Source: Candidatus Poribacteria bacterium (GTDB lineage Bacteria; Poribacteria; WGA-4E; WGA-3G). From it: a DNA stretch of 64,000 nucleotides. This document shows, one piece after another, positions 1 through 47,921 of this stretch. The notes under the pieces were generated by a model. It saw only the letters and a list, made by a program, of their open reading frames with translations, did not search any database and was not told where the DNA came from. Position numbers and translations under genes: made by a program. How positions within the stretch are numbered: position 1 is the first letter of the stretch; every line of letters begins with the position of its first letter. The stretch is from positions 3,360,001-3,424,000 of the forward strand of contig CBDANF010000003.1 in assembly GCA_965197475.1 (NCBI GenBank), read 5' to 3'.

Positions 1-12
1 AACTATCTCAGA

Positions 13-3000
13 TTGATTTTCCGCGAGTTTTGGTTGCGGAATTTACAGGAAACGTTATATATCAAATTCCAAAAAGAGTTAAACGCAGAAAAAGGTAGGA
101 ACCGTATCTATCCAAGTTTGGCACTCAGTTACTGCTATTGGTGGGATGGAAAACGCGACAAAGCACAAGAGGTCCTCTCCACCCTGCAAAAAGAATTTCC
201 GGATGACCTTACGCTTAAACTCAACACAGCGTTTGTCTCTATTCAGACAGGGAAATTTAGGGAGGCTCTAATTATAGTTGAGGAGATTGCTGAGTCAGAG
301 CCAAGAAACCGTCGCCAATATAACGATCTATTACTGCAGCTTGCCATTCAGACAGGTGATACTGTCACTTTACGTGAGTTGATAGCAAAACTCTTGAATT
401 CACCGACTAGTGCACAAGAACTTTATGAGTTCTCGTACAACCTTCAAGATGCAGGCTTCACACAGTACGCGATTGCTACAGCCCAAAAAGCGATGGCATT
501 AGCGATGACACAACGTAGTCCGAATTTCCTGATGGATTTGGGGGAACATCTGGAAGGGCTCGGTAGAGGACAAGATGCAGCACGGCTTGCGGAACGTGCC
601 CTACGTTTCGCCTACCACCCTGACCGCTACGGACGAACGATGTACGCATCGAATTTCCAACAAGCGACTAATTTAGTCCGTCGCTCCCAAAATATAAAGA
701 GTCAGGAAAATTCGTATATCGCGGAGGTCGAAAAAAAACCGGAGTCCTTCCAAGCTCAACTCAAACTTGCAATGTTCTATGAGAGCTCTGATCAGATTAA
801 CAAAGCTGCAGAAGCATTTAAGGCGGCACTGGCACTACGACCTAAGGACAGGAACACTCGCCTCAGATACGTTCAGATGTTAGAGCAAAGTGGAAAAGTA
901 AAAGAAGCTGTACCACAATATGAGATACTTCTAAAAAACGACTCATCCGCACTCGGCTACGATTATGAAGGGGCGATAGATGCCTTTATTGCTACTGGCA
1001 AATTTGATGAACTGATTTCTCTCACAAAAGATATAATTCTTCCTGTTGGACAATACGCAGGTAACGATTTCACGCAGAAAGTCGCACGGCGGTGTCTGAC
1101 CGAAAATAGACCTAAAGATGCTGTTGAGATATTCGAAAAGATTCTTGAAGTTCATCCGGGATGGAACTACGTTTACCAAGAATTAGCATCAGCTTATGTT
1201 GCTGCTGGCGGCCCTGAAAAAGCAATTCAGTACTTAACTGAGAAACAGGAACTTGGTGTAACATCTCTCTCACAAGTGGAGTTTGTATTAAAAATTGCTG
1301 AATTCCATGAGGTAGCTGGTGGACGTGAGAGAGCGATCAAATTCCTGCAAGAAAAATCTGAAACTGCTGATTTAGCAAACGCCCAGGTGTCCTACGTATT
1401 AAAACTCTCCGAATTCTATAAGGAAAGTGGTGAATTAGAAAAGTTCATCGCAGAATATGAGGCAAAACTCGCTGAAGAGCCTACGGACGCTAAACTATTA
1501 TATCTTGTAGCATCTATGAAGATTAAAGCAGAGGATATTGAAGGCGCGAACCTGCATGTTACGACATTGATTGATAATGCACTCATGTCTGTCCAAACGC
1601 AATGGCTCTTCAACCTCGCCAGTACTTGTGAAAAAGCTGGTGGTAATGATCTCCAATTCCGTCTACTTGAGGCCGCCGCTGAGAAACTTGAACGTGAGAA
1701 TTCATGGGAACTTGCAACATGTTACCGGAAATTGGGAGCGGCATACGCTAAGAAAGGTAAGAAGGAAAAGGCACAAAACGCATTTCGTAAAATGGGCAAT
1801 ATCCAGACTATGCAAAATAGTGGCGGCAGCATATATGATAAAAGGAGACTTGCCTCAACATACATGCAACACGAAATGTGGAACGATGCGGAAACAGTCT
1901 ATACCGAAATCACCAACGATATGTCAGCTTCATCCTATTACCGTGAAGATGCACAAGAACAACTCATTGAAATCTATAAACAACGTGGAGAACTTGAAAC
2001 GACCGATCAACTTACGGAAAAGACAAAAGAATTGGACATCGGAATGCAGCGTTTGATGGCGAAAGAATATGAGCGGTCAAACGATCTCTCCAAAGCTGTT
2101 CAGATTTACGAACATATTGCCAATTCAGTGCCGGAGGATTTTGAATCTCGCGCGCAACTTGCAAACGTCTACACCCGCATTAATGAGCATGAAAAGGCAT
2201 CAGAAACATGGACGGCACTGCTTGATGCAGACCCAGAAAATACCAAGTATCAAGATGGACTTGTCAACAGTTTTCAAGAAGCAGGCAAGCTAAACGAGGC
2301 ATTTGATCTTGCCCAGAAATACATTGAAGATGATCCACAAACTGGTGCCCATTATGTGCGAATGGCAAAGCTATATGTTAACGATGCCCGACTTGAAGAT
2401 GCTGTCACTGCTTATGAAAAAGCCGTTGAACTCATTCCGGGAAATCAGCAACTCTGGCAAGTATTAGCGGGTCTATATACTTACATAGGTGATGCCGATT
2501 CCGCCGGCCATGCGTTCAAAGAAGCGATTCAATATACCGCAAGAGACTATGATCGTGAGAGAATTGAACAAAAACTGATAGGTTTATACCGCCAAATCGG
2601 TAAATTAGATGAGATGCTACTCAAAGCGGAAAGTGAGAATACGATTAGCCCCGAAATGCAAAAGACGCTTGCGCAACGTTTTCGGAATACAGGAAATCTG
2701 GAAAAAGCAACTGTCGCATATAACAAAGCACTTGACATGACTCAGTATGATTATGATCGGAATGGGATCTCTAACGATTTGATTGACTTATACGTCAAAC
2801 TCGGCAAGACAGATGCTGCGTTAGAAATCTACGAAAAAATTGTTAATTCTGGTTCTTCCAATAGGACAATCCGTTACACTTCTTCCGGTATAATACTTGA
2901 TTACTATAGTGATCGTACACGCGAGGCTTTGATGAATGTTTACAGAGGTCAGAATCAGCTAAAACAGTTAGAGGCTTTCTTTGAAGCCAAGCTTGACAAG

Positions 3001-6000
3001 GATCCAGAGAATCCTACCACCCTTGAAATGCTTGCTAAGATTTATAACGATGCGAAAAATTACAAAAAAGCTGCTGATACCTACATCGCGCTTTCTAAAG
3101 CTGACCCAATCAATGTCCGTAGTTTCTTTAAGGCTGCGATGCTTGTAAATCAAATGGGGCAGCCTGAATTGGCGAAAAAACTGATTGCCCAAGGCGAAAA
3201 GGCACTCTCATCAAGCAGCAAAAAGGATGATCGGTGGGTTCTCGCTGAACTCGCAACTATCTGTTATGATAATAAAATGTACACTTGGGCTATTAAATTC
3301 GGAAATTCTGTACTTGCTGATAGTAGTAGTTACAGAGGTAGTTCCATCTATGAAACTATATACAAAATTCTTGGTAATAGTCATATAGCTGAAAAACAGT
3401 ATGAAGAAGCTTACAATGTGTACAAGCAGATGGAGCGTGATGTAACATGGAGTAGTGCCAGAGCAGATGCAAGATCCGGTATGCACAAGGCAGCAAAAGA
3501 CGGGAAACTATACGAAAAGTGGATACCAGAACAATTAAAGAAGGTTGAACAAAACCCTGATGATCCAAATGCCCTTTCTGAACTTGCACAAAGTTACGAA
3601 TCGAGCAACAAAATCAAAGAGGCAGTTGAGCAATATGAAAAACTCAATAAACTTCAACCTGACAACTCACAGTGGTACAAAAAACTTGGTTCCCTTTATC
3701 AAAATCTGCCACTGGAGAAACGTGAGACAGGTGAAGTGACTGAAGGCATTGCGCTTACGCTTGGCGGAAATGGGAGTTTCGTTGAAATCGGTGACAGTGA
3801 GTCTTTAGACAACATTACTGAACAAGTGACGGTGTCTGCGTGGATAAAACCAACCAGTTACCCAGACAGATATGTACGCATTATCTTGAGAAGTGATGAG
3901 CAAAAACAAAATTATAGGCAACGAAGTTACATCCTTGTTATTAGATCGGATGGGAAACTCAAAATTTCTTCCTCACCTCAAGATGGAGGGTACGCCTCCC
4001 TTTATTCTCCACCGGATCTCATAAAATTAAACACATGGACTCACATTGCTGGTGTTATCAATGCAAAGAAGGATTACATGAAGATTTTCGTTAATGGGTA
4101 TGAAGTTGGACATAGACATTATAATGGAGAAGATAGTTTCGTTAAATGTCGTCTTCCATTACGCATAGGTGCTACACATAGAATAGACCAGGAGGCACAA
4201 TCCTCTTTTGTAGGACAAATTGATGAGGTGCGTGTATGGAACGTTGCGCGTACTGTAGATGAGATTCGTTCGGATATGAACACACAACTCAACGGGGATG
4301 AACAGGGTTTAGTTGGATATTGGAAATTTGACAAAGAGACGGAAGGCAGAATATTCGATTCTTCACCTAACAAAAATGATGGCAAACTAATTGGAAATAC
4401 CAAACTGGAGTCTTACACGCGTCCAATTTTTGAGATTTTAAAATCTGATGACTTTGAAAAGACAATTGCTATTTACGAAAAAGCAATTGAACAGCAGCCT
4501 AATTCGTATGAATTCTACAACTTGTTGGCACAAATCTATAAGAAAAAGGAGGATACGTCACAAGTAGAAGCAATGTATCGTCGAGCATTGAAAGCCCCCC
4601 TTACGCAGCGCGAGTATGAGAGTGCAATTAATGCCATCCAGAGTCTTTATGCTGACGAAGATCAAACGGAAAAATGGATTGCGATCCTTGAAGAGATGCA
4701 ACCGAAATTAGAAGAGAGTGCTGTCCTACACGAACTGTTAGGCGATGCCTATAAGAAAACGGGAGATGTTGAAAAATCTGAACTTGCTTACGCCAAATGG
4801 TTAAAGATTCGAAAAAAAGAGTTGAACCGACAAAACTATTATCGTTACTATAGAGATTTTGCAGAGAAACTGCTTGATAGAGACATGTTTCCAGGAACAG
4901 CCTTAAATTTCGCAAAACGTGCATCATTAAGTGTAACAGGATCAATCGATTATCTCACTACCTTAGGTACCGCTTATATCGTAAATGGTAATTATGATGA
5001 CGCACTTGAACAGTTCAAAATGTGTGTTAACATGGTCTCCTCAGATTATTCATCGGACCAGTTTTGGGAAAAAATTATCAAAGCAAGTAATAAAGCTAAC
5101 GACAAGGAACGACACATTCAAATGCTTGATACATTAATAAACACCATTCCATCGGGAAATGCCAGTGCCCGCGCAAATGCACACCGTATGATTGCACAAT
5201 TCTATAGTCAGAAAGGAATGCCTAAAACTGCAGAAAGTTATGTTTTGAAGGGGGGCTTTATTCCTGAAACGCGTTGGATAACGCTCGGACCGTTTAAGAA
5301 TATAGATTCAAGTGGTGTTTTATATGCCTATATCCATGAGGAAACCACACAAATTGACACAACCGCAAAATATTTCGGGAGAGATAAGGATAAGCTCATC
5401 AGTTGGGAAAAGTCGAGCGATAATAAATTAGATGGACGTTACGATTTCGGTAACGACGACGGTATCAATGATTGGAGCGCAGCTTATGTATGGGCGGTTG
5501 TTATTTCGCCAGATGAACGTGACATTACATTCCGATTTGACAGCGATGACCAAGGGATTATCTGGTTAAACGGGAAGAGGGTCTTTGAACATTCCAGAGC
5601 TAGTATTGGTGGTGGTGGTGTACAAATTGATCGTCATACCATTCCAGTTACATTGAAACAGGGAGAGAACACTATCCTTATCAAAGTCTGCAATTCATCG
5701 CAAACTTGGGATTTGTATATGCGGCTTACTGACGCTGACGGCAATTCGTTTGAGGATTTGAAATTCAAAACTGCCGATGCGTTGCTGAACGCGCCGCCTC
5801 CCGAACCAACATTCCACCTAAATGTCAACCTCGGCTTGGCTGAATACTATAGCAAAAACAACATGCCCGATAAGGCAATGGAACAAATGCGGCAAACGGG
5901 CATCATTCATGAAAATGCGTGGTTGATTCTAGGCCCGTTTGACAATACTGCAGGAGTCGGATACAATACTGTGTACATTCCCGAAGACATAACGCAGATT

Positions 6001-6405
6001 GATAAGACTGCAAAATATGAAGGCGTAGGTGAACAGATAAGTTGGAAAAAGTTTACAGATGATGTTTTCGATGGGTTTATTGATTTCGGGAAGGACATTA
6101 ATTGGCGTGTTTCCTACGCATGGGCAACCGTTACTTCACCTGACGAGCGAGAAGTGCAATTCCGATTTGATAGCGACGACCAAAGCAAAATCTGGTTAAA
6201 TGGCAATGAAGTATTTGCCAATACGCAAGCACATGCAGCAATAGTTGACCGCTACACTATTCCCGTAAAGTTGAAAGTAGGCAAAAACAGTATCCTTGTC
6301 AAAGTTTGCAATGAAGAAGGCGGATGGGGATATTATCTGCGAATTACCGATGCTGATGGAAAACCCTTTGAAGATTTGCAAATTAACGATGCACAAGACA
6401 ATTAG
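13..6405 (+). CDS. Giant TPR-repeat protein with an inserted LamG/ConA-like domain and two C-terminal PA14-like beta-sandwich repeats; probably 5'-partial
   Basis: 2130-aa ORF with many TPR helical repeats. LamG motifs TVSAWIKP, WTHIAGV and GQIDEVRVWN. Two repeats of W-x-x-LGPF...FRFDSDDQ..IWLNG...G-x-N-x-ILxKV. The frame is open to the window edge with no RBS, so the true start is likely upstream. Confidence 0.85.
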   Translation: MIFREFWLRNLQETLYIKFQKELNAEKGRNRIYPSLALSYCYWWDGKRDKAQEVLSTLQKEFPDDLTLKLNTAFVSIQTGKFREALIIVEEIAESEPRNRRQYNDLLLQLAIQTGDTVTLRELIAKLLNSPTSAQELYEFSYNLQDAGFTQYAIATAQKAMALAMTQRSPNFLMDLGEHLEGLGRGQDAARLAERALRFAYHPDRYGRTMYASNFQQATNLVRRSQNIKSQENSYIAEVEKKPESFQAQLKLAMFYESSDQINKAAEAFKAALALRPKDRNTRLRYVQMLEQSGKVKEAVPQYEILLKNDSSALGYDYEGAIDAFIATGKFDELISLTKDIILPVGQYAGNDFTQKVARRCLTENRPKDAVEIFEKILEVHPGWNYVYQELASAYVAAGGPEKAIQYLTEKQELGVTSLSQVEFVLKIAEFHEVAGGRERAIKFLQEKSETADLANAQVSYVLKLSEFYKESGELEKFIAEYEAKLAEEPTDAKLLYLVASMKIKAEDIEGANLHVTTLIDNALMSVQTQWLFNLASTCEKAGGNDLQFRLLEAAAEKLERENSWELATCYRKLGAAYAKKGKKEKAQNAFRKMGNIQTMQNSGGSIYDKRRLASTYMQHEMWNDAETVYTEITNDMSASSYYREDAQEQLIEIYKQRGELETTDQLTEKTKELDIGMQRLMAKEYERSNDLSKAVQIYEHIANSVPEDFESRAQLANVYTRINEHEKASETWTALLDADPENTKYQDGLVNSFQEAGKLNEAFDLAQKYIEDDPQTGAHYVRMAKLYVNDARLEDAVTAYEKAVELIPGNQQLWQVLAGLYTYIGDADSAGHAFKEAIQYTARDYDRERIEQKLIGLYRQIGKLDEMLLKAESENTISPEMQKTLAQRFRNTGNLEKATVAYNKALDMTQYDYDRNGISNDLIDLYVKLGKTDAALEIYEKIVNSGSSNRTIRYTSSGIILDYYSDRTREALMNVYRGQNQLKQLEAFFEAKLDKDPENPTTLEMLAKIYNDAKNYKKAADTYIALSKADPINVRSFFKAAMLVNQMGQPELAKKLIAQGEKALSSSSKKDDRWVLAELATICYDNKMYTWAIKFGNSVLADSSSYRGSSIYETIYKILGNSHIAEKQYEEAYNVYKQMERDVTWSSARADARSGMHKAAKDGKLYEKWIPEQLKKVEQNPDDPNALSELAQSYESSNKIKEAVEQYEKLNKLQPDNSQWYKKLGSLYQNLPLEKRETGEVTEGIALTLGGNGSFVEIGDSESLDNITEQVTVSAWIKPTSYPDRYVRIILRSDEQKQNYRQRSYILVIRSDGKLKISSSPQDGGYASLYSPPDLIKLNTWTHIAGVINAKKDYMKIFVNGYEVGHRHYNGEDSFVKCRLPLRIGATHRIDQEAQSSFVGQIDEVRVWNVARTVDEIRSDMNTQLNGDEQGLVGYWKFDKETEGRIFDSSPNKNDGKLIGNTKLESYTRPIFEILKSDDFEKTIAIYEKAIEQQPNSYEFYNLLAQIYKKKEDTSQVEAMYRRALKAPLTQREYESAINAIQSLYADEDQTEKWIAILEEMQPKLEESAVLHELLGDAYKKTGDVEKSELAYAKWLKIRKKELNRQNYYRYYRDFAEKLLDRDMFPGTALNFAKRASLSVTGSIDYLTTLGTAYIVNGNYDDALEQFKMCVNMVSSDYSSDQFWEKIIKASNKANDKERHIQMLDTLINTIPSGNASARANAHRMIAQFYSQKGMPKTAESYVLKGGFIPETRWITLGPFKNIDSSGVLYAYIHEETTQIDTTAKYFGRDKDKLISWEKSSDNKLDGRYDFGNDDGINDWSAAYVWAVVISPDERDITFRFDSDDQGIIWLNGKRVFEHSRASIGGGGVQIDRHTIPVTLKQGENTILIKVCNSSQTWDLYMRLTDADGNSFEDLKFKTADALLNAPPPEPTFHLNVNLGLAEYYSKNNMPDKAMEQMRQTGIIHENAWLILGPFDNTAGVGYNTVYIPEDITQIDKTAKYEGVGEQISWKKFTDDVFDGFIDFGKDINWRVSYAWATVTSPDEREVQFRFDSDDQSKIWLNGNEVFANTQAHAAIVDRYTIPVKLKVGKNSILVKVCNEEGGWGYYLRITDADGKPFEDLQINDAQDN

Positions 6406-18554: not shown

Positions 18555-19640
18555 TCATGGAGACGCATACTTTTCATTTTCGATGGATGTCTCAACACCA
18601 TATAACGCTTTTATATTTCCCCACTGCATGGGCAACTTTCCCTGCGGAGACACAGGCAAAGGTCCCTCTATCCAATCCGGATAATAGTCAAAACTCGGTT
18701 CCCGTGTCAATCGCCTGAGTCTACGTGTCGCAATCTCATACTTGTAGATGTCATGATCCGGGTCCTTTTCGGGAACATCTGTCCGTTTTGCTGAGAAAAG
18801 AATAGTGCGCCCGTTGTCCATCCAACTCAACCCGCCACCTGCCCACTCTCCACCGATCTTCTCATCAATATCAATTTCCTTTTTCCTACCGGTTTTAGAC
18901 AGAATAACGAATCGGTTGACAGGGTGTTCCCACTGTCCTATTGATTCAATAAAGAGAATCTGTTTTCCATCTGTTGACCAACGTGGGTAGAACCTGAAAA
19001 CGAATCCATCTTCTCCATCCGGATCTGGCACGAATGGTCGCTGGTTCTGTCCATCCGTGGACATGATCCAGACGGTTTTATGACTGATCCCTTTACCGCT
19101 TGGGACAAACTTTCCATAGACAATCTCTTCGCCGTTCGGGGACCAATCAGGACTGTATGAACCTGAGCCTTTTTTACCTTTAGCATCCGTTAACTGTTTT
19201 ACCTCTCGACTTTCCAAATCCATCACATAAATTTCCCGATGTCCACTTCTGTTGCTCTTAAATGCCAAATATCTTCCGTCTGGTGACCATGCAGAAGCTC
19301 CGTTTATATCGCCTTCAACGCTGTGGGTGAGCTGCTGTTGGTTAGTGCCGTCTGCGTTCATGATAAAAAGTTGATACTTTTGTGTGTCCTTCTCAAGGTT
19401 CCTATCAAAAGCGATACGCGTTCCATCCGGTGACCACCGCGGTCTGAGCTCCCAAAACTGATTGTCTGTTAACCTACGTCTGCCACTGCCATCATCGTTC
19501 ATGACGTAGATACTGCCGTACGCGTTATAGGCGATTTTGGCATTGGCAACGTAAGGAACAAACAACAAGAGGAGACAACAAGATATTAAAATTTGTGTAA
19601 CGTGTAGGATTAAAAGTTTCTTAAAGTTAGCAAGTTTCAT
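18555..19640 (-). CDS. Secreted TolB-like (PD40) beta-propeller with TWG-type motif (cassette 1)
   Basis: Signal peptide ending ANA-KI; repeats PRWSPDG, AWSPDG and PDWSPNG; PVSPQGKLPMQWGNIK near the C-terminus; AGGAG RBS before ATG 19640. Confidence 0.9.
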   Translation of the reverse strand: MKLANFKKLLILHVTQILISCCLLLLFVPYVANAKIAYNAYGSIYVMNDDGSGRRRLTDNQFWELRPRWSPDGTRIAFDRNLEKDTQKYQLFIMNADGTNQQQLTHSVEGDINGASAWSPDGRYLAFKSNRSGHREIYVMDLESREVKQLTDAKGKKGSGSYSPDWSPNGEEIVYGKFVPSGKGISHKTVWIMSTDGQNQRPFVPDPDGEDGFVFRFYPRWSTDGKQILFIESIGQWEHPVNRFVILSKTGRKKEIDIDEKIGGEWAGGGLSWMDNGRTILFSAKRTDVPEKDPDHDIYKYEIATRRLRRLTREPSFDYYPDWIEGPLPVSPQGKLPMQWGNIKALYGVETSIENEKYASP

Positions 19641-19660
19641 CACTTTTCTCCTATGATTAG

Positions 19661-19691
19661 GGCGGACGCAAGATATACATCCGCGCCCGCC
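19661..19691 (-). promoter_or_regulatory. Intergenic GC-rich hairpin between the cassette-1 genes
   Basis: On the minus strand GGCGGGCGCGGA-TGTATA-TCTTGCGTCCGCC, immediately before the RBS of the TolB-like gene; no U-tract. Confidence 0.6.
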
Positions 19692-19737
19692 ATTAAGAAC
19701 GCAGTAGTGGTAGACATCCGCATTCAGTTTGAAGGGG

Positions 19738-20367
19738 TTACTGCCCATCCCAATTCCAATCGTCTATGCCCAGAGGCTGGTGGACAAGTTCAATAACCAG
19801 TTCGTCATCTACCTCCCATATATCTATCTCTCTAATCCCATCACCATTAAGATCCTTCTTTGCTGTTAAGGTAGACTCTGCAGTAAGCGTGTATCTGCCC
19901 GCATGTTTAGTACCCAGATTGTATTCCTTAAGATGCTCGTCGTCCACCCACCAGTAGCCAAGATCATCGGGATTATTTGCCCAATACGAACCTAAAAAGC
20001 CGTGGTGGCTCCAAACATCGTCATCCGCATAACTAAGAGGTCCTTCAATCCTGCTGACGAAGTCAACGTAGAATCGAAGATCGTTAATCTGATCCGGCCA
20101 GTCAGGGAGACCTCCCGAATAATTATTGATGTATGCTGAATGAACGCTGTGAGCTATTGGGTATTCATACCCCGTCCATACTACAACGCGTCCGTATACA
20201 AAAGTTAGGATCTGATGTTTTCCGCCGAATCCCTCAACGCGCTCTGATTCTGACCATGGATGTGCAATCTCACCATCGTCCGTATAGACGTGCGCGTGAA
20301 GATGCGTTGAAACAAAACAGGTCAATCCTATTAGCCCGATGAGGGCTATCATTGCTAAATTTTTCAC
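19738..20367 (-). CDS. Secreted hypothetical beta-rich protein (cassette 1)
   Basis: AAGGAG RBS, GTG start, signal peptide, acidic/aromatic composition; no family recognised. Confidence 0.85.
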   Translation of the reverse strand: MKNLAMIALIGLIGLTCFVSTHLHAHVYTDDGEIAHPWSESERVEGFGGKHQILTFVYGRVVVWTGYEYPIAHSVHSAYINNYSGGLPDWPDQINDLRFYVDFVSRIEGPLSYADDDVWSHHGFLGSYWANNPDDLGYWWVDDEHLKEYNLGTKHAGRYTLTAESTLTAKKDLNGDGIREIDIWEVDDELVIELVHQPLGIDDWNWDGQ

Positions 20368-20396
20368 AATTTTCTCCTTATTGTTAGTTATACCAA

Positions 20397-20824
20397 GGAG
20401 ACGTATCTATTTTAGCACGTCTCCGTTTTTGTGTAAATAAAATAAACAAATTGTAAGTAGTTGCACCTATTCTGTTTTGATGTGCGTTGTGCGCGAATAG
20501 AATAGGGATAACAAGCATTGCGGTGTCCGCGATGCAACAACAAAAGCCCGCGGCGAAACACTTCATAGAAACGAAGTGCACGTGCGGGCGCGAAAATACT
20601 GCAGCTTCTAACGTCTGCAATACGACCTTGTCCACTGAAATAATTAACAAATGTGAAGTGGGGGTAGTAACTAACAGTTAAAACGAAACCACCAGGTATT
20701 GTGTCAGAACAACCCTGTTCAGATAGCAAACATCTGAAATGTTCATTTTTGGAGGGTATTGGTTAAATAATGATGCAAGAATTAGCGGGATACCCTCTGA
20801 ACCGCGCTGCATCATATTTCAGTT
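20397..20824 (-). ncRNA. Candidate large structured leader RNA or ncRNA with pseudoknot
   Basis: Begins right after a consensus promoter; about nine stems plus an 8-bp pseudoknot, found by manual pairing (see findings). Confidence 0.6.
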
Positions 20825-20830
20825 GCGGTA

Positions 20831-20859
20831 ATGATAACACTTATAACGAGAGTTGTCAA
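20831..20859 (-). promoter_or_regulatory. sigma70-type promoter
   Basis: TTGACA-17 bp-TATCAT on the minus strand. Confidence 0.75.
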
Positions 20860-20889
20860 TGAAAAAATCAGACTGATTTTCATTGACTT

Positions 20890-21686
20890 ATATGCCTAAA
20901 ACTTGTATCCTCATTGAAAACAACTCATTTCTACTCACAGGAGGATACCATGAAAGCGTGTCCAAGATGTCAACATATTCACTTCGTCAAAAACGGGTTC
21001 GTCAACGCAAAACAACGTTATAAATGTCCAAGTTGCCACTATCAATTCACACGCAAAACACCACGAGGTAAACCCCAGACACATAAAACCCTCGCTCTGC
21101 TCTTGGACTGCCACGGTATTTCAATGAATGCTATCTCAAAACTCTTCAACATTCATGTAACAACTGTTCTCAAATGGGGACGCTCCTATGCGAAAAAACA
21201 CGCCCCGAAACGGACATTTTCACCCGGATCCACCGTAGTTTTGGAGCTTGATGAAATGTGGCATTATATCGGAAAGAAGAAAAACAAACTTTGGATATGG
21301 AAAGCACTTGACAGGAACACAGGATACCTCATAGATTGGCAATGCGGCGGACGCAACACAGAAACCCTTGAAAAACTGACGCATCGCCTCAAAGCCTTGA
21401 ATGTCAAAATGTCCTACACCGACAAGTGGCAGGTGGACGAATCCATCCTACCTGCTTCAAAACATGTTCAAACGAAGGCGGAGACACATCGCATTGAACG
21501 CAACAATTGCTTGATGCGGCACTGGTTCGGCCGGTTCAAACGTCCGTCCATTATTGTTTCAAAAAGTGTGGAGATGGTGAACCTAACGATTGCCTTGTTC
21601 GCACGATTTCGTGTTAATGGAGACGTGTTTGACATTTTAAAACTTGGCGGAATGGAAACCATGAATATCATTAGTTAGGCAATACC
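20890..21686 (+). mobile_element. IS1-family insertion sequence
   Basis: Right end reads GGTATTGCCTAA on the minus strand (IS1-type GGT end). Degenerate left end TATGCCTAA at ~20891. Contains a transposase. Confidence 0.85.
20950..21678 (+). CDS. IS1-family transposase (single-ORF InsAB)
   Basis: Zn finger CPRC...YKCPSC, HTH, DDE motifs LDEMW, TDKW and IERNN; GGAGG RBS. Confidence 0.93.
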   Translation: MKACPRCQHIHFVKNGFVNAKQRYKCPSCHYQFTRKTPRGKPQTHKTLALLLDCHGISMNAISKLFNIHVTTVLKWGRSYAKKHAPKRTFSPGSTVVLELDEMWHYIGKKKNKLWIWKALDRNTGYLIDWQCGGRNTETLEKLTHRLKALNVKMSYTDKWQVDESILPASKHVQTKAETHRIERNNCLMRHWFGRFKRPSIIVSKSVEMVNLTIALFARFRVNGDVFDILKLGGMETMNIIS

Positions 21687-21687
21687 C

Positions 21688-23510
21688 TCGAAAAATTTAC
21701 TGATTGTTCCCTTATTGTTAGTCTTGATTCTGTTTTCTCTAAACGTATGTGCTCAGGACTATATGAAATGGGGACTTCCTGAAAATGCTACGCTTCGTCT
21801 TGGGAAAGGGCAAATTTACGACCTAAAGCATTCACCAAATGGCGACCTGATTGCAGTAGCAAGTTCCATCGGAGTTTGGTTGTATGACGCTCATTCTGGT
21901 AAAGAAATTAGGTTGCTGCAAAAACACAGCTATCCGGTTAATTCATTGGCGTTCTCATCAAATAGCAAAATGTTAGCAAGTGGTGGTTCAGATGGTATCC
22001 ATCTGTGGGAACCTCACACTGGGCAGCATCTATTTACGCTCACAGAATCAGCGGCTAACAATTTGGTTTTTTTCCTGATGGACGAACGCTGGTAAGTACA
22101 AGTGATAAAATAATTAGGTTTTGGGATGTGGCGAACAGGACTATTTCTAAAACCCTTACAGGACATACATGGCAAATTTTGTCTCTCGCGGTTTCACCAA
22201 ATGGAAAAACTATAGTTAGTGGTTCTCATGTTAATGATGAACTGAAACAAAGTAATGGACTGCGTTGGTGGGATGTTGAAACTGGAAGAATGTTGTTTTT
22301 TTCAACAGCCATGGATTCAGCGGTTACTGCTCTAGCGTTTTCCCCTAATGGAAAAATACTAGCTTGTGCAAATAGTTTCAGCAGGTCGGAGAATCGAAAC
22401 ATCTATTTATTTGATGGTGTTAGTGGTGAAATATTAAGGACGCTGCCCGAACTGCACGGTAAAACCATAAGCTTAGAATTTTCTCCTGATGGCAAAACGC
22501 TAGCCAGTACTGGATGGGATGGTACAATCCGCCTTTGGGATCCACACACTGGGCACCATATCCATACGTTTAGAGGATACGTGGGGTGGTTATCGTTTTC
22601 GCCTGATGGTAAAACCCTTGTGAGTGGTGGAGATGGGGTAATTCGGTTTTGGGATACATCAACGAAACAACAGCGTTTTAGTGTTTCTGGTCACTGGAAT
22701 AGTATAGGTGCGTTGACGTTTTCATCCGATAGTAAAACGCTAATCAGCGGTGGTTATGAAACTCCCATAATTCATAAATGGGATGTATCTACGGGCCAAC
22801 TCATGTCTACCTTAACACTAACGTCTGCTGATGCAGAACAAATTTGGGCTTTTAATGCGAAACGCGGTTTATGTGCTAGTACAAGTAGGGAACAATCTTC
22901 CTATAAAATTTGTATCCGTGACATTGATACCGGTCAACTTCACGCTTCAATGGACTATCAGTTTCTCTTACCACTAATTTCAGAATTTTCACCATTAACA
23001 TTTTCACACAATGGAGAGACAATAATTGTTTTGAACGAACAAGAAATTGGTAGTAAAAAAGTGTTGGAATTTGAATTTTGGGATTCATGGCTTCATTCCG
23101 TTAAATTTAAGTTTATGCCACATAAAAATGAAATTTTTAAATATTCTACACATACTGACGTTACGGCTCTCACATCTTCACCAGATAACACGCTTCTCGC
23201 TACTGCTGTAGGAGGTCGGGTTGCCCTTTGGAAGTTTGGCACCGACGAACTTATTCTGTCCTATCCTGAATTTGATCGCCTTAGTTGCTACGCGTTGGCA
23301 TTTTCTAATGATAGCAAAATTCTTGCTATCGGAGACTCTCTGGATATCTGTCTAATTGAAGTGGATACCGGAAATCTTATAACAACCTTGTCTAAACATA
23401 ACAACTGGGTTAAAGCGTTGGCATTTTCCGCTGATGGCAAAATGCTTGCAAGTGGAAGTAAAGACGGCACAATTTTGATTTGGGACTTAGATAAAATTAT
23501 GAAGAATTAG
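21688..23510 (+). pseudogene. Secreted WD40-repeat protein; start apparently removed by IS1, frameshift at ~22070
   Basis: Signal-like SKNLLIVPLLLVLILF abuts the IS end; WGLPENATLRLGKG; many FSPDG..LAS..D..I..WD repeats. The two ORFs join through LVF(S)PDGRTLVSTSDKIIRFWD if one base is added at the T-run. Confidence 0.82.
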
Positions 23511-43454: not shown

Positions 43455-45118
43455 ATGGAAAATACTTCACACCTCCTATTCATCTGCGCGCTATTTTTCA
43501 CATACCTTCTGCCCTTAAACGCAGATGAACCAACGATCCTCTTTACCGAACAGACTGAAGCAGCTGGAATCCATTTCAGACATATCAACGGAGCATCCGA
43601 ACAGAAATATCTACCCGAAACGATGGGAGCTGGTTGCCTATTCTTTGACTATGACAATGACGGTTTCCCTGATATCTATCTTGTCAATAGTGGTAAATCT
43701 TGTGAGAACGTTTCTCAACCCCGTACCCAACCTGATGAGATGAACGTTCTTTATCATAACAATGGCGATGGAACGTTTACCGATGTAACTATACAATCGA
43801 GATTTCAGGAAAATTTTGGTTATGGAATGGGTTGTCTCTCCGCTGATTACGACAACGATGGCGATGCAGACTTGTATCTCACCAACTTCGGAAGGAACCA
43901 ACTCTATCGCAACAATAGCGATGGCACTTTCACAGATGTTACAAACAATGCTGGTGTCGGCGATTCACACTGGAGTGTCAGCGCGTCCTTCGGAGACTAT
44001 AACCTTGATGGATATCTCGATCTGTATGTGACAAACTATCTCGATTATCATGTTAAAACTGCACATGCCTGTTCACTGCAAGGCGTTCATATTTACTGCG
44101 GCCCACACGAATACCCAGGCGCACCGGATACGCTTTATCGCAACAACGGCGATGGTACTTTTACAGATGTCACTACAAAGTCAGGGTGCGTAATGCTGGA
44201 AAAGGGTTAGGCGTTATCTTCACAAATTACAACAATGATGGCTATCCCGATATTTTCGTGGCAAACGATGCTGTCCAAGATTTTCTTTATCGCAACAACG
44301 GTGATGGAACATTTACCGATGTTGCAATCACAGCAGGGATTGCATATAATTCAGAGGGACGCGCAACGGCAAGTATGGGGATTGCAAATGGAGATTACGA
44401 TAACGACGGTGTTTTAGACCTTTTTGTTACAAACTTTTCGCTGGAAGTCAACAGTCTTTTCCACAACGATGGCAATGGATTTTACACAATGACTACGTTT
44501 GAAACAGGACTTGCAGAGCCCAGTTTCTCACAACTCGGTTTTGGTACACAATTTCTTGATGCCGACAATACCGGCACTTTGGACCTTTTCGTAGCGAACG
44601 GGCATGTATGGGACAACGTCTCGCAAATCACACCATCGCTATCCTACAAACAGACATACCAATTTTTCAGTAACACCGGAACAGGAAATTTCAAGGAAAT
44701 TTCTAAAGTAGCAGGAAAGTTTTTCACACGTCCAGTAGTTGCGCGCGGCACCGCCATCGGTGATTACGATAAAGATGGGGACACGGATATTCTCATCACA
44801 ACTTGTGGTGGAAAACCCATACTTCTACAGAACGATTCTAAAAGGGTAAACAATTGGTTGAAAATCAAATTAGTCGGTACTAAAAACAATCGCGATGGAA
44901 TCGGCGCGAAAGTTTATCTGAAAACTGATAACACAACACAAGTCAGAGAAGTTACTTGTGGCGGCAGCTACGCCTCTGGGAGTAAGCACACGGTTCATTT
45001 TGGGCTTCGCACCCACACAAAAGTGCAATCCATTGAAGTGAAATGGCCAGGAGGACATATCCAAAGGCTTGAGAATCTATCCACAAATCAAATTATCCGT
45101 GTTGAAGAAAACCGTTGA
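43455..45118 (+). CDS. CRTAC1-family FG-GAP/ASPIC-UnbV protein; frameshift at ~44185
   Basis: Repeats DYDNDG..D and YRNNGDGTFTDV; UnbV tail NRDGIGA..GGSYAS..HFGL. The two ORFs join as SGVRNAGKG if one G is added. Confidence 0.88.
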
Positions 45119-45257
45119 GTTTGATGAAATATTCTGCTATGCTGTAGCGCGAGGTCTCTGTGCCTTGCATTCCCTTAAGAACAGACTAAAAAATTTCAAT
45201 TTTATATTGATAAACATCCGTAACTTCCGTTACAATTGAAGACAGGAGGTTATATTT

Positions 45258-46022
45258 ATGAAAAACCGTAACTTTTGGAAAATTGTTGGTTATAGTGCTA
45301 TCATCTGTTTACTCACACCGATGTCTGTGTGGGTAATTACTGCAGATGCAGCTGAATCATTCGGTGACCCGTTTGATGGTGGCGAATTGCAGAATCCAAA
45401 TTGGAAATGGCAAAACGAGCCAGCAAATTGGGATATCAGCGAAACCCACGACGGATTCCTGTACATTAAGACTGATGATGCAAATAGGGATCTCTGGGCA
45501 AACGACATGTCGCATTTCTTATATCAGGAAACTGAAACTGATATGTTTGATGTTGAAACCCGTTTCTTCGCCAGATGGGATACAAATAGCAGTGTAAATG
45601 GGCTGCTTGTAAAAAGCCCTTCTGACAATAATTGGGTGACAATTAAATTCTGGTCAAGAGATGCTGCTAATAGGGGGCACATCCAGTATCAAACCAGGGA
45701 AGCTGGGTTGGAACCGGATGATATACAATGGAGATTTGGTGATTGGGGTGACATCGAAATGTCCCTCCGACTCAAAAAAGAGGGTGATACATACACTGCA
45801 TGGTATAAAGCAATGGATGATGAGGATTGGGTAGATATCGGACAAGATAACTTTGCCCTGACTCCGCCACTTTGGCTCGGTATCTATGCCGGCGTTGCCA
45901 ACGATCAAGGTGGTACGCTTGAGGTTGAATACGAATATTTCCAAGACAATATGAACGAGTTTCCTGTTGAACCGGGTGGTAAAGCAACAACAACTTGGGG
46001 AGCAGTCAAAACCCGATATTAA
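45258..46022 (+). CDS. Secreted ConA-like beta-sandwich (DUF1349-like) protein with TWG motif
   Basis: AGGAGG RBS, signal peptide, LRLKKEGDTYTAWYK, GIYA; ends PVEPGGKATTTWGAVKTRY. Confidence 0.82.
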   Translation: MKNRNFWKIVGYSAIICLLTPMSVWVITADAAESFGDPFDGGELQNPNWKWQNEPANWDISETHDGFLYIKTDDANRDLWANDMSHFLYQETETDMFDVETRFFARWDTNSSVNGLLVKSPSDNNWVTIKFWSRDAANRGHIQYQTREAGLEPDDIQWRFGDWGDIEMSLRLKKEGDTYTAWYKAMDDEDWVDIGQDNFALTPPLWLGIYAGVANDQGGTLEVEYEYFQDNMNEFPVEPGGKATTTWGAVKTRY

Positions 46023-46036
46023 GGAGGACAAAAGCA

Positions 46037-47921
46037 ATGCGATGCAGCTTAATCATATTTCTCTGTTTCTGTGTCGTTTCTCCTCTACTGGCTGAGACTT
46101 TCACAGATGTAAGTCAAGTGGCAGGAGTTCATCAGCGAGAAACTCCAATAGATCCGAATTCCGGGGCTTGGATGGGCCCCGGAACCGCCGCTGTAGATTA
46201 CGATAACGATGGCTGCTGGCTTGACATCTTCGTTGTTGGAGATGGTAGTTTACCCAATGCGCTTTACCATAATAACGGTGATGGAACATTTATGGATATA
46301 GCAGCCGAAGCAGGGGTGGCAAACACGCCAAACGGACGCGGGTGCGTCTGGTTTGACTATAACAATGATGGTTGGCGTGATCTTTATGTAACCTGTGCGG
46401 GACCAAACTTTCTCTTCATGAACAATGGGGATAGCACCTTCACAGATGTAAGTGAAGAGGCAGGGGGTCACTGATGCCCAGCACGGTACCAGTGCCTCGG
46501 TTGCTGATTATGACCACGATGGATGGCTTGATATCTATGTTGCGAACTGGGGACGCCCGGTCTCCCTTTTAGTTTTTGATCCTGCTCCCAGAATAAACGT
46601 GCTATATCGGAACAAAGGAGATGGCACTTTTGAAGAGGTAACAGACTCGGCAGGAGTCGCAGATGATGGAATTGCTTGGGGTGCAATCTTTTTTGATTAC
46701 GATGGCGATACATGGGCAGATTTGTTCGTAGCAAACGACCACGGTCCTGATAAACTCTATCGCAACAGAGGTGATGGCACCTTCACAGATGTTTCGGAGC
46801 AATCTGGCATTGTTACGCTCATCAGAGGAAAACCAACTGGTGCGATGGGACTTTGCGTCGGAGACTATGACAACGATACTGACCTTGATCTTTTCGTTAC
46901 AAACTACGATGAAGATCTGCTCTGGCGAAATAACGGTGATGGCACCTTTACTAACGTTGCTGAAGATGTTGGCGTTGCGAACGTAGGTGTAGGTTGGTAT
47001 GCCAGTTTCATTGACTTTGATAACGATGGATATCGCGACCTTTATGTTGTCAACGGTGATGTAGATAATTCGCAAAAGACAAACCGTAACCGTCTCTATC
47101 ATAATACTAAAGATGGAAAGTTTGTAGATCGTTCCGATGCGTTCAATACAACTGTTGATACCGTCGCACGTGGTGCAACTGCTGGAGATTTTGATAACGA
47201 TGGCGATGTCGATTTCTTTGTCGTCAACAACACTGGCAATACACTTCTTCTAAACGATCTTGATCCTCCATGGCGGTCCAATTATCCTGCCCTTCGGCGC
47301 AACTTAGCTAAGAATCAACGTCTCAAAATTCGTTTGCATGGAACAAAAAGCAACCGCGATGGCATCGGCACACGGGTTGCAGTGAAAGTAAGGGACTTCG
47401 TTCAAACGCAAGAATTAATCTGCGGCACCGGCTTTCTCGGTAGCGACAGTTTAGAACTTGAATTTGGACTGGCAGGTGCTAATAGAATCGATTCAATTAC
47501 GCTGACATGGCCATCTGGAATTGTCGAAACTTATGAACACCTATACGCATCAGACCTGTTCATTTTTACTGAAGGAGAAATGCAAAAGTTTGTAGTCGCG
47601 GTTGAACCAACAGGAAAACAGGCGACAACGTGGGGAAAGATCAAAACTGCAGAGGTGTTTCAAAACTATCCTAACCCATTTAACCCTGAAACGTGGATAC
47701 CGTATAATCTTTTTGAATCCAGTGATGTGAAATTTTCAATTTTTTCTCAGAGTGGAGATTTGGTACGAGAATTTAAAATTGGACAACAATCGCGTGGTGA
47801 AAAGAAATTATATTGGGATGGCAAAAACGCAAATGGCGAAACTGTTGCCAGTGGAATCTATTTCTATCAGTTTAAGGCTGGCAATACCCAAAGTGTGCGA
47901 AAAATGTGGTTAATGAAATAG
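46037..47921 (+). CDS. CRTAC1-family protein with TWG motif and FlgD-Ig/T9SS-A-like tail; frameshift at ~46465
   Basis: FG-GAP repeats, UnbV domain, AVEPTGKQATTWGKIK then QNYPNPFNPETWIPY...WDGKN..GE.VASGIYFY. Removing one G from the G5 run joins the two ORFs. Confidence 0.88.

Follow-up and report, generated by a model that had tools for sequence, protein, structure and literature searches.

In Salmonella, the leader open reading frames (ORFs) mgtL and mgtP are rich in proline codons, and the speed of their translation sets downstream transcription; both act via alternative stem-loops and, for mgtA, also via Rho. Homopolymeric tracts are known from contingency loci, such as the poly-C in the Bordetella fim promoters or the tracts in Neisseria and Haemophilus surface genes, and lie there in a promoter spacer or within the structural gene. 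Moreover, outward-reading promoters are known in the ends of insertion sequences (IS), e.g. IS10 pOUT and ISAba1. Here we describe a multi-copy leader module of Poribacteria, uncultivated sponge symbionts of whose gene regulation almost nothing is known. We analysed a 64,000-nt stretch of contig CBDANF010000003.1 of a Candidatus Poribacteria bacterium (the window), in which positions 20368-20751 constitute the truncated 5′ leader of a gene for a 209-aa exported protein and one copy of this genus-wide module. Taken as a whole, it appears rather likely that the module is a translation-coupled attenuator whose window copy has been disrupted by an IS; the facts on the IS and on the module, each on their own, are close to certain. 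Paper listings on small RNA or phase variation in Poribacteria contain no description of the module, and listings for phase variation together with a homopolymeric tract, a leader peptide and a terminator hold a single paper, on Helicobacter lipopolysaccharide genes.

A ribosome translating across the hairpin of the pyrBI (pyrL) leader of Escherichia coli suppresses termination, and in a PPPPPP-pyrL reporter a polyproline stall upstream of the intrinsic terminator raised termination without EF-P (Elgamal et al., mBio 2016, PMC5021804). Like pyrL, the module has a short leader ORF adjoining an intrinsic terminator. The two differ in that the commonest frame of the module stops 9-37 nt before its first hairpin, so that crossing of the terminator is confined to the other two frames. 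Furthermore, the module, known from sequence alone, has no evident U-rich pause logic for a nucleotide signal, is multi-copy and stands before exported-protein genes. With mgtL and mgtP it shares a short upstream ORF with proline codons, but it combines a C homopolymer with a canonical intrinsic terminator, and a search by eye and in the alignment fold gave no alternative pairing. As in contingency loci, C tracts (8-34 nt) stand before exported or surface-protein genes at many loci per genome and differ in length between copies and orthologs; unlike there, the module has its tract within an upstream ORF ahead of a terminator, and the length variation is one between copies. In the window copy, the tract is only 5 C long.

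Fourteen relatives of the window segment 20683-20506, 75-81% identical to it, are found in the same genome. Their alignment yields a core of CAAGGUC, an 8-bp hairpin, AUAUUUU, a long GC-rich hairpin and UUUUGUUGUU, upstream of which the copies share an AT palindrome, a C run and ACTTCACATTCGTTAATT. A covariance model built on the 15 own-genome copies gives 15 strong matches (95-115 bits) and three weak ones (34-39 bits) in this genome and detects the module in 19 of 24 further same-genus genomes, with 1-18 matches in each; none of 16 genomes from three other families of the order was matched. An exact degenerate pattern, applied to one genome per species for 185,579 species, retrieved 10 stretches, all in records titled Poribacteria. 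Judged from the aligned copies, the full module runs from a promoter through a small upstream ORF (about 40-52 codons) with an AT palindrome, a poly-C tract (prolines) and (L/I)HIR-stop to CAAGGUC. After this follow the 8-bp hairpin, an intrinsic terminator, a third hairpin, variable hairpins and the ribosome-binding site of an exported- or membrane-protein gene. Being a concrete, clonable element, the module lends itself to experiments. A promoter motif with 12/12 hexamer matches, TTGACAAAA..AAATTCGCGTGTATAAT, recurs upstream of several copies (own B12-B14 and B11; L070 and L071), as if part of the unit. At one copy (L024, G000:C2 near 611.5 kb), palindromic G-rich repeats (GGGGGGTTA units with CCCCC..GGGGG arms) are inserted between terminator and gene, just past the U-run, and may be a small mobile repeat.

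The two central hairpins are conserved as structures. In an alignment of 43 copies, 96.1% of cells in hairpin 1 (20622-20597) and the terminator (20589-20536) are paired, compared to 26-48% when the pairing partners are shifted. Both-side changes occur in 17 of the 22 pairs, and not one of five measures was reached by any of 500 column shuffles; because the structure guided the fit of the alignment and the copies are related, the pairing figures favour the structure and the counts overstate independence. The exchanges, G-C to A-U and C-G to U-A, are plain in the alignment rows. Hairpin 3 (20535-20515), aligned in 24 copies, shows both-side changes in four of eight pairs, e.g. GC in 11 versus AU in 10. 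The covariation that a first-pass annotation of this DNA had named as a check on its structured RNA is hence strong in hairpin 1 and terminator and present in hairpin 3. That annotation had also called the GCCCGC..GCGGGC stem terminator-like, which holds in that the stem is conserved and covarying and is followed by a U-run, but it is not listed by a simple terminator scan, because of an interrupted stem and a loop that does not fit the rule of the scan. The stem 20589-20546 appears in both minimum-energy folds with UUUUGUUGUU directly behind it, as expected of an intrinsic terminator, and the non-IS leader (20368-20751) folds by itself with a z-score of -5.33. A pairing of AAGGUC with GGCUUU suggested by RNAalifold was not adopted, showing one-sided changes only.

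The module is tied to the gene that follows it. Each of the 15 own copies has a co-directional ORF behind it, beginning at a distance of 19-387 nt, and the same holds within 480 nt for 42 of the 43 copies with long flanks. A hydrophobic N-terminal segment is present in 39 of these 42 downstream proteins, compared to 32.8% of 3349 control ORFs; the proteins belong to at least nine unrelated multi-member families plus singletons. Among ten of them scanned with Pfam, seven had no match, two had weak TPR matches below the curated cut-offs, and one (B10 locus) was an IS1 transposase. The largest family comprises membrane proteins of 157 aa (nine own copies), with a gap of only about 50 nt between the U-run and GGAGG plus start codon. 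There, a TTGACA-17-TATAAT-like match ends one base before the start codon and cannot serve that gene; with no room for a promoter in this gap, the genes of this family must be reached by read-through of the terminator. As a genus-wide, multi-copy leader before exported-protein genes, the module marks a candidate regulon for host interaction.

The small ORF has a conserved N-terminus (M/V-x-N-x-x-x-N-T-T-I-Q-K), a poorly conserved middle, then the C run, read as 3-5 prolines, and an end of (L/I)-H-I-R followed by a stop 9-37 nt before CAAGGUC, as in the example P0001. With the patterns used, on which the classification of the ORFs depends, the strict H-I/V-R-stop motif occurs in 51 of 95 distinct copies and ends an ORF of at least 35 codons in 28 of these 51. 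Among the 37 copies with the N-terminal motif, 21 stop at ..IR-stop, 10 pass hairpin 1 and the terminator and stop beyond, four stop before the C tract and two elsewhere. A coding-like pattern is seen in the first 12 codons of 20 intact ORFs, with 0.31/0.16/0.36 differences per site at codon positions 1/2/3, and only there, which makes translation of the 5′ part of the ORF plausible. The two other frames are unusually open: in 47 of 62 copies with ..IR-stop, neither has a stop between the motif and the end of hairpin 1, compared to 4.8 copies expected from dinucleotide shuffles of this AT-rich part. The same is true for 16 of 23 representatives less than 80% identical to each other. The canonical frame has about two stops, and both alternative frames stay stop-free through the terminator, i.e. 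over the whole element. A short ORF upstream of or overlapping a terminator, as in leader-peptide attenuators, is thus found across the family; its translation is predicted, and the IS interrupts this ORF in the window copy.

The C tract itself comprises 4-34 C among the copies (8-34 C in 49 of 95) and 5, 6 and 10 C among orthologs. Only 15 C or G runs of at least 8 nt exist in the 5.7-Mb genome, nine of them in strong module copies and three beside weak ones. In three of the 95 copies another repeat, (GACTC)8, (TA)n or (CT)n(TA)n, takes the place of the tract; these copies are L133 (G007:C1 near 408.5 kb) and, in G005, L137 and L120, and the repeat lies upstream of the conserved motif.

From these features we infer a translation-coupled attenuator, in which the hairpin-terminator would end transcription. 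A ribosome that stops before the hairpin would let the terminator form, and one that remains on the RNA across the terminator would prevent termination, as may happen in the two other, stop-free frames after the C tract; the polyproline stretch or the length of the tract would set which case applies. In 10 of 37 copies the leader ORF runs through the terminator, and in the 157-aa-family copies the roughly 50 nt behind the terminator leave no room for a separate promoter.

Several observations weigh against the attenuator, in addition to the kinship of the aligned copies mentioned above. The N-terminal motif, as the pattern defines it, is missing in 58 of 95 copies. The middle of the peptide has no coding signature (0.57/0.59/0.57 differences per site in the 20 intact ORFs), the last 14 codons show no relaxation at the third position (0.22/0.20/0.16), and synonymous changes overall amount to 0.257 versus 0.23 expected; conservation at the 3′ end of the ORF may therefore act on the nucleic acid rather than on the peptide. 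Homopolymer lengths in long-read metagenome-assembled genomes may be wrong, which would affect every frame call. No relatives of the 49-aa product P0001 were found among predicted proteins of 26-86 aa, which says little, as small ORFs are rarely called. An antiterminator or other alternative pairing was not found by eye or in the alignment fold. Finally, the window copy (TTTACA-17-TAAAAT) and its orthologs have a good promoter-like site behind the terminator and ahead of the gene, so that the window gene may not depend on read-through.

A more specific form of the attenuator, to which we assign only tentative credence, is phase-variable. Slippage of the C tract, or of the repeat replacing it, would move the small ORF between frames, of which one would be off and the other two on. 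The frame ending before the hairpin would let the terminator form and keep the gene off, and the other two would allow read-through and switch it on; as the tract would give polyproline whichever frame is used, EF-P would be expected to influence the switch as well. If true, up to 18 such modules in a genome, every one ahead of a gene for a different exported or membrane protein, would give rise to a combinatorial surface or secreted repertoire in sponge symbionts, and the frame switch would represent a new coupling of simple-repeat slippage to transcription termination.

The same features can be read in other ways. The small ORF might be an independent small gene for a peptide of 40-52 aa with a strong terminator of its own that merely insulates exported-protein genes using their own promoters. 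This would fit the TTTACA-17-TAAAAT site between terminator and gene in window and orthologs, which recurs before other genes, as well as the coding-like substitutions in the N-terminal codons. However, copies of the 157-aa family offer no promoter room between the U-run and the ribosome-binding site, hairpin 3, past the terminator, is structurally conserved, and the peptide middle is unconstrained and frame-shifted between subfamilies. Moreover, the ORF is broken in many copies in which hairpin and terminator are intact, and we thus regard an independent small gene as unlikely. Still less probable is a multi-copy trans-acting small RNA of about 95 nt, consisting of hairpin 1, an AU-rich linker and the terminator with its U tail, with a promoter in the ACATTCGTTAATT region. 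Its architecture, the strongly conserved single-stranded CAAGGUC and AUAUUUU, and the conservation of ACATTCGTTAATT at the nucleotide level without synonymous variation are in line with such an RNA. It is weakened by the absence of any hexamer pair with workable spacing for a sigma-70 or sigma-54 promoter directly upstream of hairpin 1: an acceptable -35 is missing, its position falling into the poly-C tract of 5 to 34 nt. In addition, the spacing between motif and CAAGGTC is variable (9 to 37 nt), and all 15 own copies stand in one orientation directly before genes. A selfish, dispersed repeat of the MITE (miniature inverted-repeat transposable element) type without a regulatory role, whose hairpins would be transposition or stability signals, could account for the copy number (1-18 per genome), the patchy occurrence among species and the IS-rich genome. 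We nonetheless judge it highly improbable, given that neither terminal inverted repeats nor target duplications were seen, that the orientation to the next gene is fixed with 39 of 42 copies tied to exported proteins, and that the compensatory changes preserve RNA-type pairs including G-U.

The first-pass annotation, in turn, had read 20397-20859 as one densely structured riboswitch-like RNA of about 450 nt, which would start near 20824 behind TTGACA-17-TATCAT, be closed by ACUGAAAUA/UAUUUCAGU and contain a pseudoknot, and it had proposed a novel riboswitch or attenuator, or a stand-alone non-coding RNA of about 280 nt. Each motif that it quoted is found at its position on the minus strand, the promoter motif included. 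The dense folding could be confirmed: the 459 nt from the inferred start to the gene reach -132.2 kcal/mol, compared to -104.1 ± 6.0 kcal/mol for 100 dinucleotide shuffles (z = -4.65). A known riboswitch family, which it had not recognised, is not evident either in a covariance search of the whole window against Rfam (no match at gathering score) or in a permissive search of 20200-21000 with E up to 10, which returned only seven sub-threshold eukaryotic small nucleolar RNA, microRNA or intron matches (best E 0.025). Yet the single RNA is hardly tenable, as it is already contradicted by the origin of its 5′ part. The first 75 nt are IS sequence at least 99% identical to copies elsewhere with other flanks, and orthologous leaders lack the IS part and use another promoter further upstream. 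The IS contains the promoter, the AUGAUGCA/UGCAUCAU-GCGG/CCGC hairpin and the 5′ arm of the 9-bp closing helix (20823-20815 with 20642-20634), whose 3′ arm is non-IS sequence. This helix is at chance level: two perfect 9-mer helices of this kind are observed versus 0.6 ± 1.05 in 1000 shuffles, 14% of which have at least two, and the helix is absent from the minimum-energy fold of the 459 nt. The pseudoknot (20790-97 with 20752-59) likewise dissolves into the terminal repeat GAGGGTAT of the IS and its sub-terminal inverted copy. The stretch, as its repeat boundaries indicate, is the junction of an IS end and a truncated leader copy and not one evolved RNA; for scans of this type, an IS end joined to a structured leader can mimic one large RNA with promoter and pseudoknot.

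What remains of the first proposal lies in the leader. Its attenuator half is borne out by a middle and 3′ part that are conserved, covarying and provided with a terminator. The riboswitch half is not, as no aptamer-like conserved junction is seen: the conserved core consists of two or three simple hairpins, the 5′ part is taken up by the ORF, and Rfam offers no aptamer. A stand-alone RNA of about 280 nt is unlikely in view of the small ORF filling the 5′ part of the module. Three adjacent hairpins (20736-20660) are present as motifs, but they lie inside the small ORF and are partly kept in three orthologous leaders with no clear compensatory change by eye.

The IS, a recent insertion, is identified by several features. 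Its transposase carries Pfam DDE_Tnp_IS1 (PF03400, E = 1.9e-25). BLAST against the own genome shows 21100 down to 20752 as a single unbroken repeat, and about 20 genomic copies, about 10 at ≥99% and about 10 at about 79% identity, all end at the equivalents of 20752 and 21689. The ≥99% set includes four copies with an extra insertion at 20839-20843 and one with an internal gap. Together with terminal inverted repeats and 8-bp target-site duplications, which are swapped between two copies, this places it in the IS1 family. GAGGGTAT occurs at 20752-59 (+), 20790-97 (-) and 21682-89 (-) and has seven matches in the whole window versus 1.0 expected. The outward-facing, sigma-70-like TTGACA-17-TATCAT site belongs to the repeat common to all near-identical copies. 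As with IS10 pOUT and ISAba1, a near-consensus -35/-10 pair in the IS terminus is aimed at the neighbouring gene; it differs from these in being a predicted promoter. In four copies (C3:1494463/1492114, C3:2852573/2855178, C2:350770/349413, C2:1423361/1422004), the element is interrupted at the equivalent of 20839-20843, in the spacer of the outward site, by inserts of about 1.36-2.6 kb with a 5-bp overlap. A tandem additional copy of the 133-bp IS end lies at C2:1264823-1264955.

How the element came to sit in the leader can be reconstructed from its flanks, which read CATTTTTG|IS|GAAAAATT in the window and GAAAAATT|IS|CATTTTTG at another copy (C3:1347452-1348388). The two copies (window 20744-21697 and G000:C3:1347444-1348396, spans with duplications) are 99.7% identical, have the same orientation and lie 2.03 Mb apart on contig C3. 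The missing upstream part of the leader is found at C3:1348389-1349067, directly adjoining this second copy. Orthologous leaders without IS exist in two genomes of the same genus (G022, 84% identity; G017, 78%); they start exactly at the equivalent of 20751, run down into the orthologous gene and have a TTGACA-17-TATAAT preceded by TG about 75-100 nt further upstream. The swapped duplications and the displaced leader part suggest that the IS inserted into the small ORF with an 8-bp duplication and that the two copies later exchanged flanks, which would have left the native promoter and the start of the ORF at a distance of 2.03 Mb. Either a reciprocal exchange with a cointegrate-like order (A-IS-B-IS-C) or a mis-join of the assembly at the IS would explain this arrangement. 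As the contig reads, the window leader is in either case fused to the IS end and separated from its native promoter, and the window copy of the module is thereby disrupted.

If transcribed, the window copy would be driven from the outward promoter of the IS or from TTTACA-17-TAAAAT just before the gene. Contigs from RNA libraries (four sponge metatranscriptome runs of one study; strand and ends are not shown and DNA carry-over is possible) cover 19668-20385, i.e. the 209-aa gene, and the IS end; this is compatible with, but no proof of, a transcript start near 20400. They do not cover 20416-20667 or the 20751/20752 junction, which is not evidence of silence. At 20752 they split exactly into several different flanks, as expected for a multi-copy IS. 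A long-range helix of 20676-20668 with 20390-20382 is roughly kept, by eye, in three orthologous sequences, a number too small for a verdict, and the complementarity of UCUCCUU to the ribosome-binding site is kept in five other copies. TTTACA-17-TAAAAT with its palindrome recurs as a unit upstream of other genes in relatives, with both compensatory and breaking changes. This portable promoter-like unit (TTTACA, GGAGACGT, the -10 in the loop, ACGTCTCC) stands before different genes at L081, L082, L086, L033, L092 and own C2:672388-672421, its 3′ arm plus UU being complementary to the downstream ribosome-binding site; at C2:672421, a variant of the IS (about 79%) is inserted within it. The coordinates of all features are compiled in Table 1.

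Table 1. Features of the leader and of the adjoining IS1-family element; positions refer to the window.
Feature	Position	Strand	Remarks
PD40 beta-propeller protein	18555-19748		after the 209-aa gene
Gene for 209-aa protein	19738-20367	-	N-terminal hydrophobic signal-like segment; no Pfam match
GTG start codon	20367-20365	-	
Ribosome-binding site AAGGAGA	20379-20373	-	
UCUCCUU	20401-20395	-	complementary to ribosome-binding site
Inverted repeat GGAGACGT/ACGTCTCC	20424-20397	-	flanks -10 of TTTACA-17-TAAAAT (-10 in loop)
Promoter-like TTTACA-17-TAAAAT with TG	20437-20409	-	10/12 matches
Hairpin 4, CCUAUUCU..AGAAUAGG	20466-20506	-	in fold; one compensatory change in ortholog L070 (by eye)
Hairpin 3, GCAUCGCGG..CCGCAAUGC (GCAU..AUGC)	20515-20535	-	directly after U-run
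UUUUGUUGUU	20545-20536	-	follows terminator hairpin
Predicted intrinsic-terminator hairpin	20589-20546	-	folds and covariation
Hairpin 1, 8 bp, UAUUGCAG/CUGCAGUA	20622-20615 with 20604-20597	-	
Conserved CAAGGTC	20630-20624	-	
Conserved motif ACTTCACATTTGTTAATT	20659-20642	-	
Poly-C tract	20664-20660	-	5 C only
Palindrome	20683-20668	-	
22-codon ORF, protein P0002	20678-20746	-	remnant of the small upstream ORF; 5′ part and native promoter removed by IS
Target-site duplication half (8 bp), CATTTTTG on + strand	20744-20751		partner beside other IS copy 2.03 Mb away
IS1-family insertion sequence, 938 bp	20752-21689	+	Pfam domain, genome repeat boundaries
Left terminal inverted repeat GAGGGTATTG	20752-20761	+	internal inverted copy 20790-20797
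Outward-facing promoter-like TTGACA-17-TATCAT	20831-20859	-	IS left end; 11/12 matches, TG before -10
Transposase ORF	20914-21678 as listed, likely ATG 20950	+	inside IS1-family element
Right terminal inverted repeat CAATACCCTC	21680-21689		end of IS

Some further observations concern the surroundings of the element. The junction with the IS creates a 45-codon ORF at 20678-20815 on the minus strand, which starts in the IS end, continues in frame into the 22-codon remnant of the leader ORF and is probably accidental. On the right flank of the IS (21715-23510) lie two WD40-repeat ORFs of 126 aa and 460 aa, apparently fragments of one gene, the former starting 26 nt past the IS end. Elsewhere in the window, FG-GAP/VCBS-like repeat units (direct-repeat families D1-D3) are numerous in two gene clusters, one at 43647-47228 and one at 1-6405, and a 2134-aa ORF runs past the window start.

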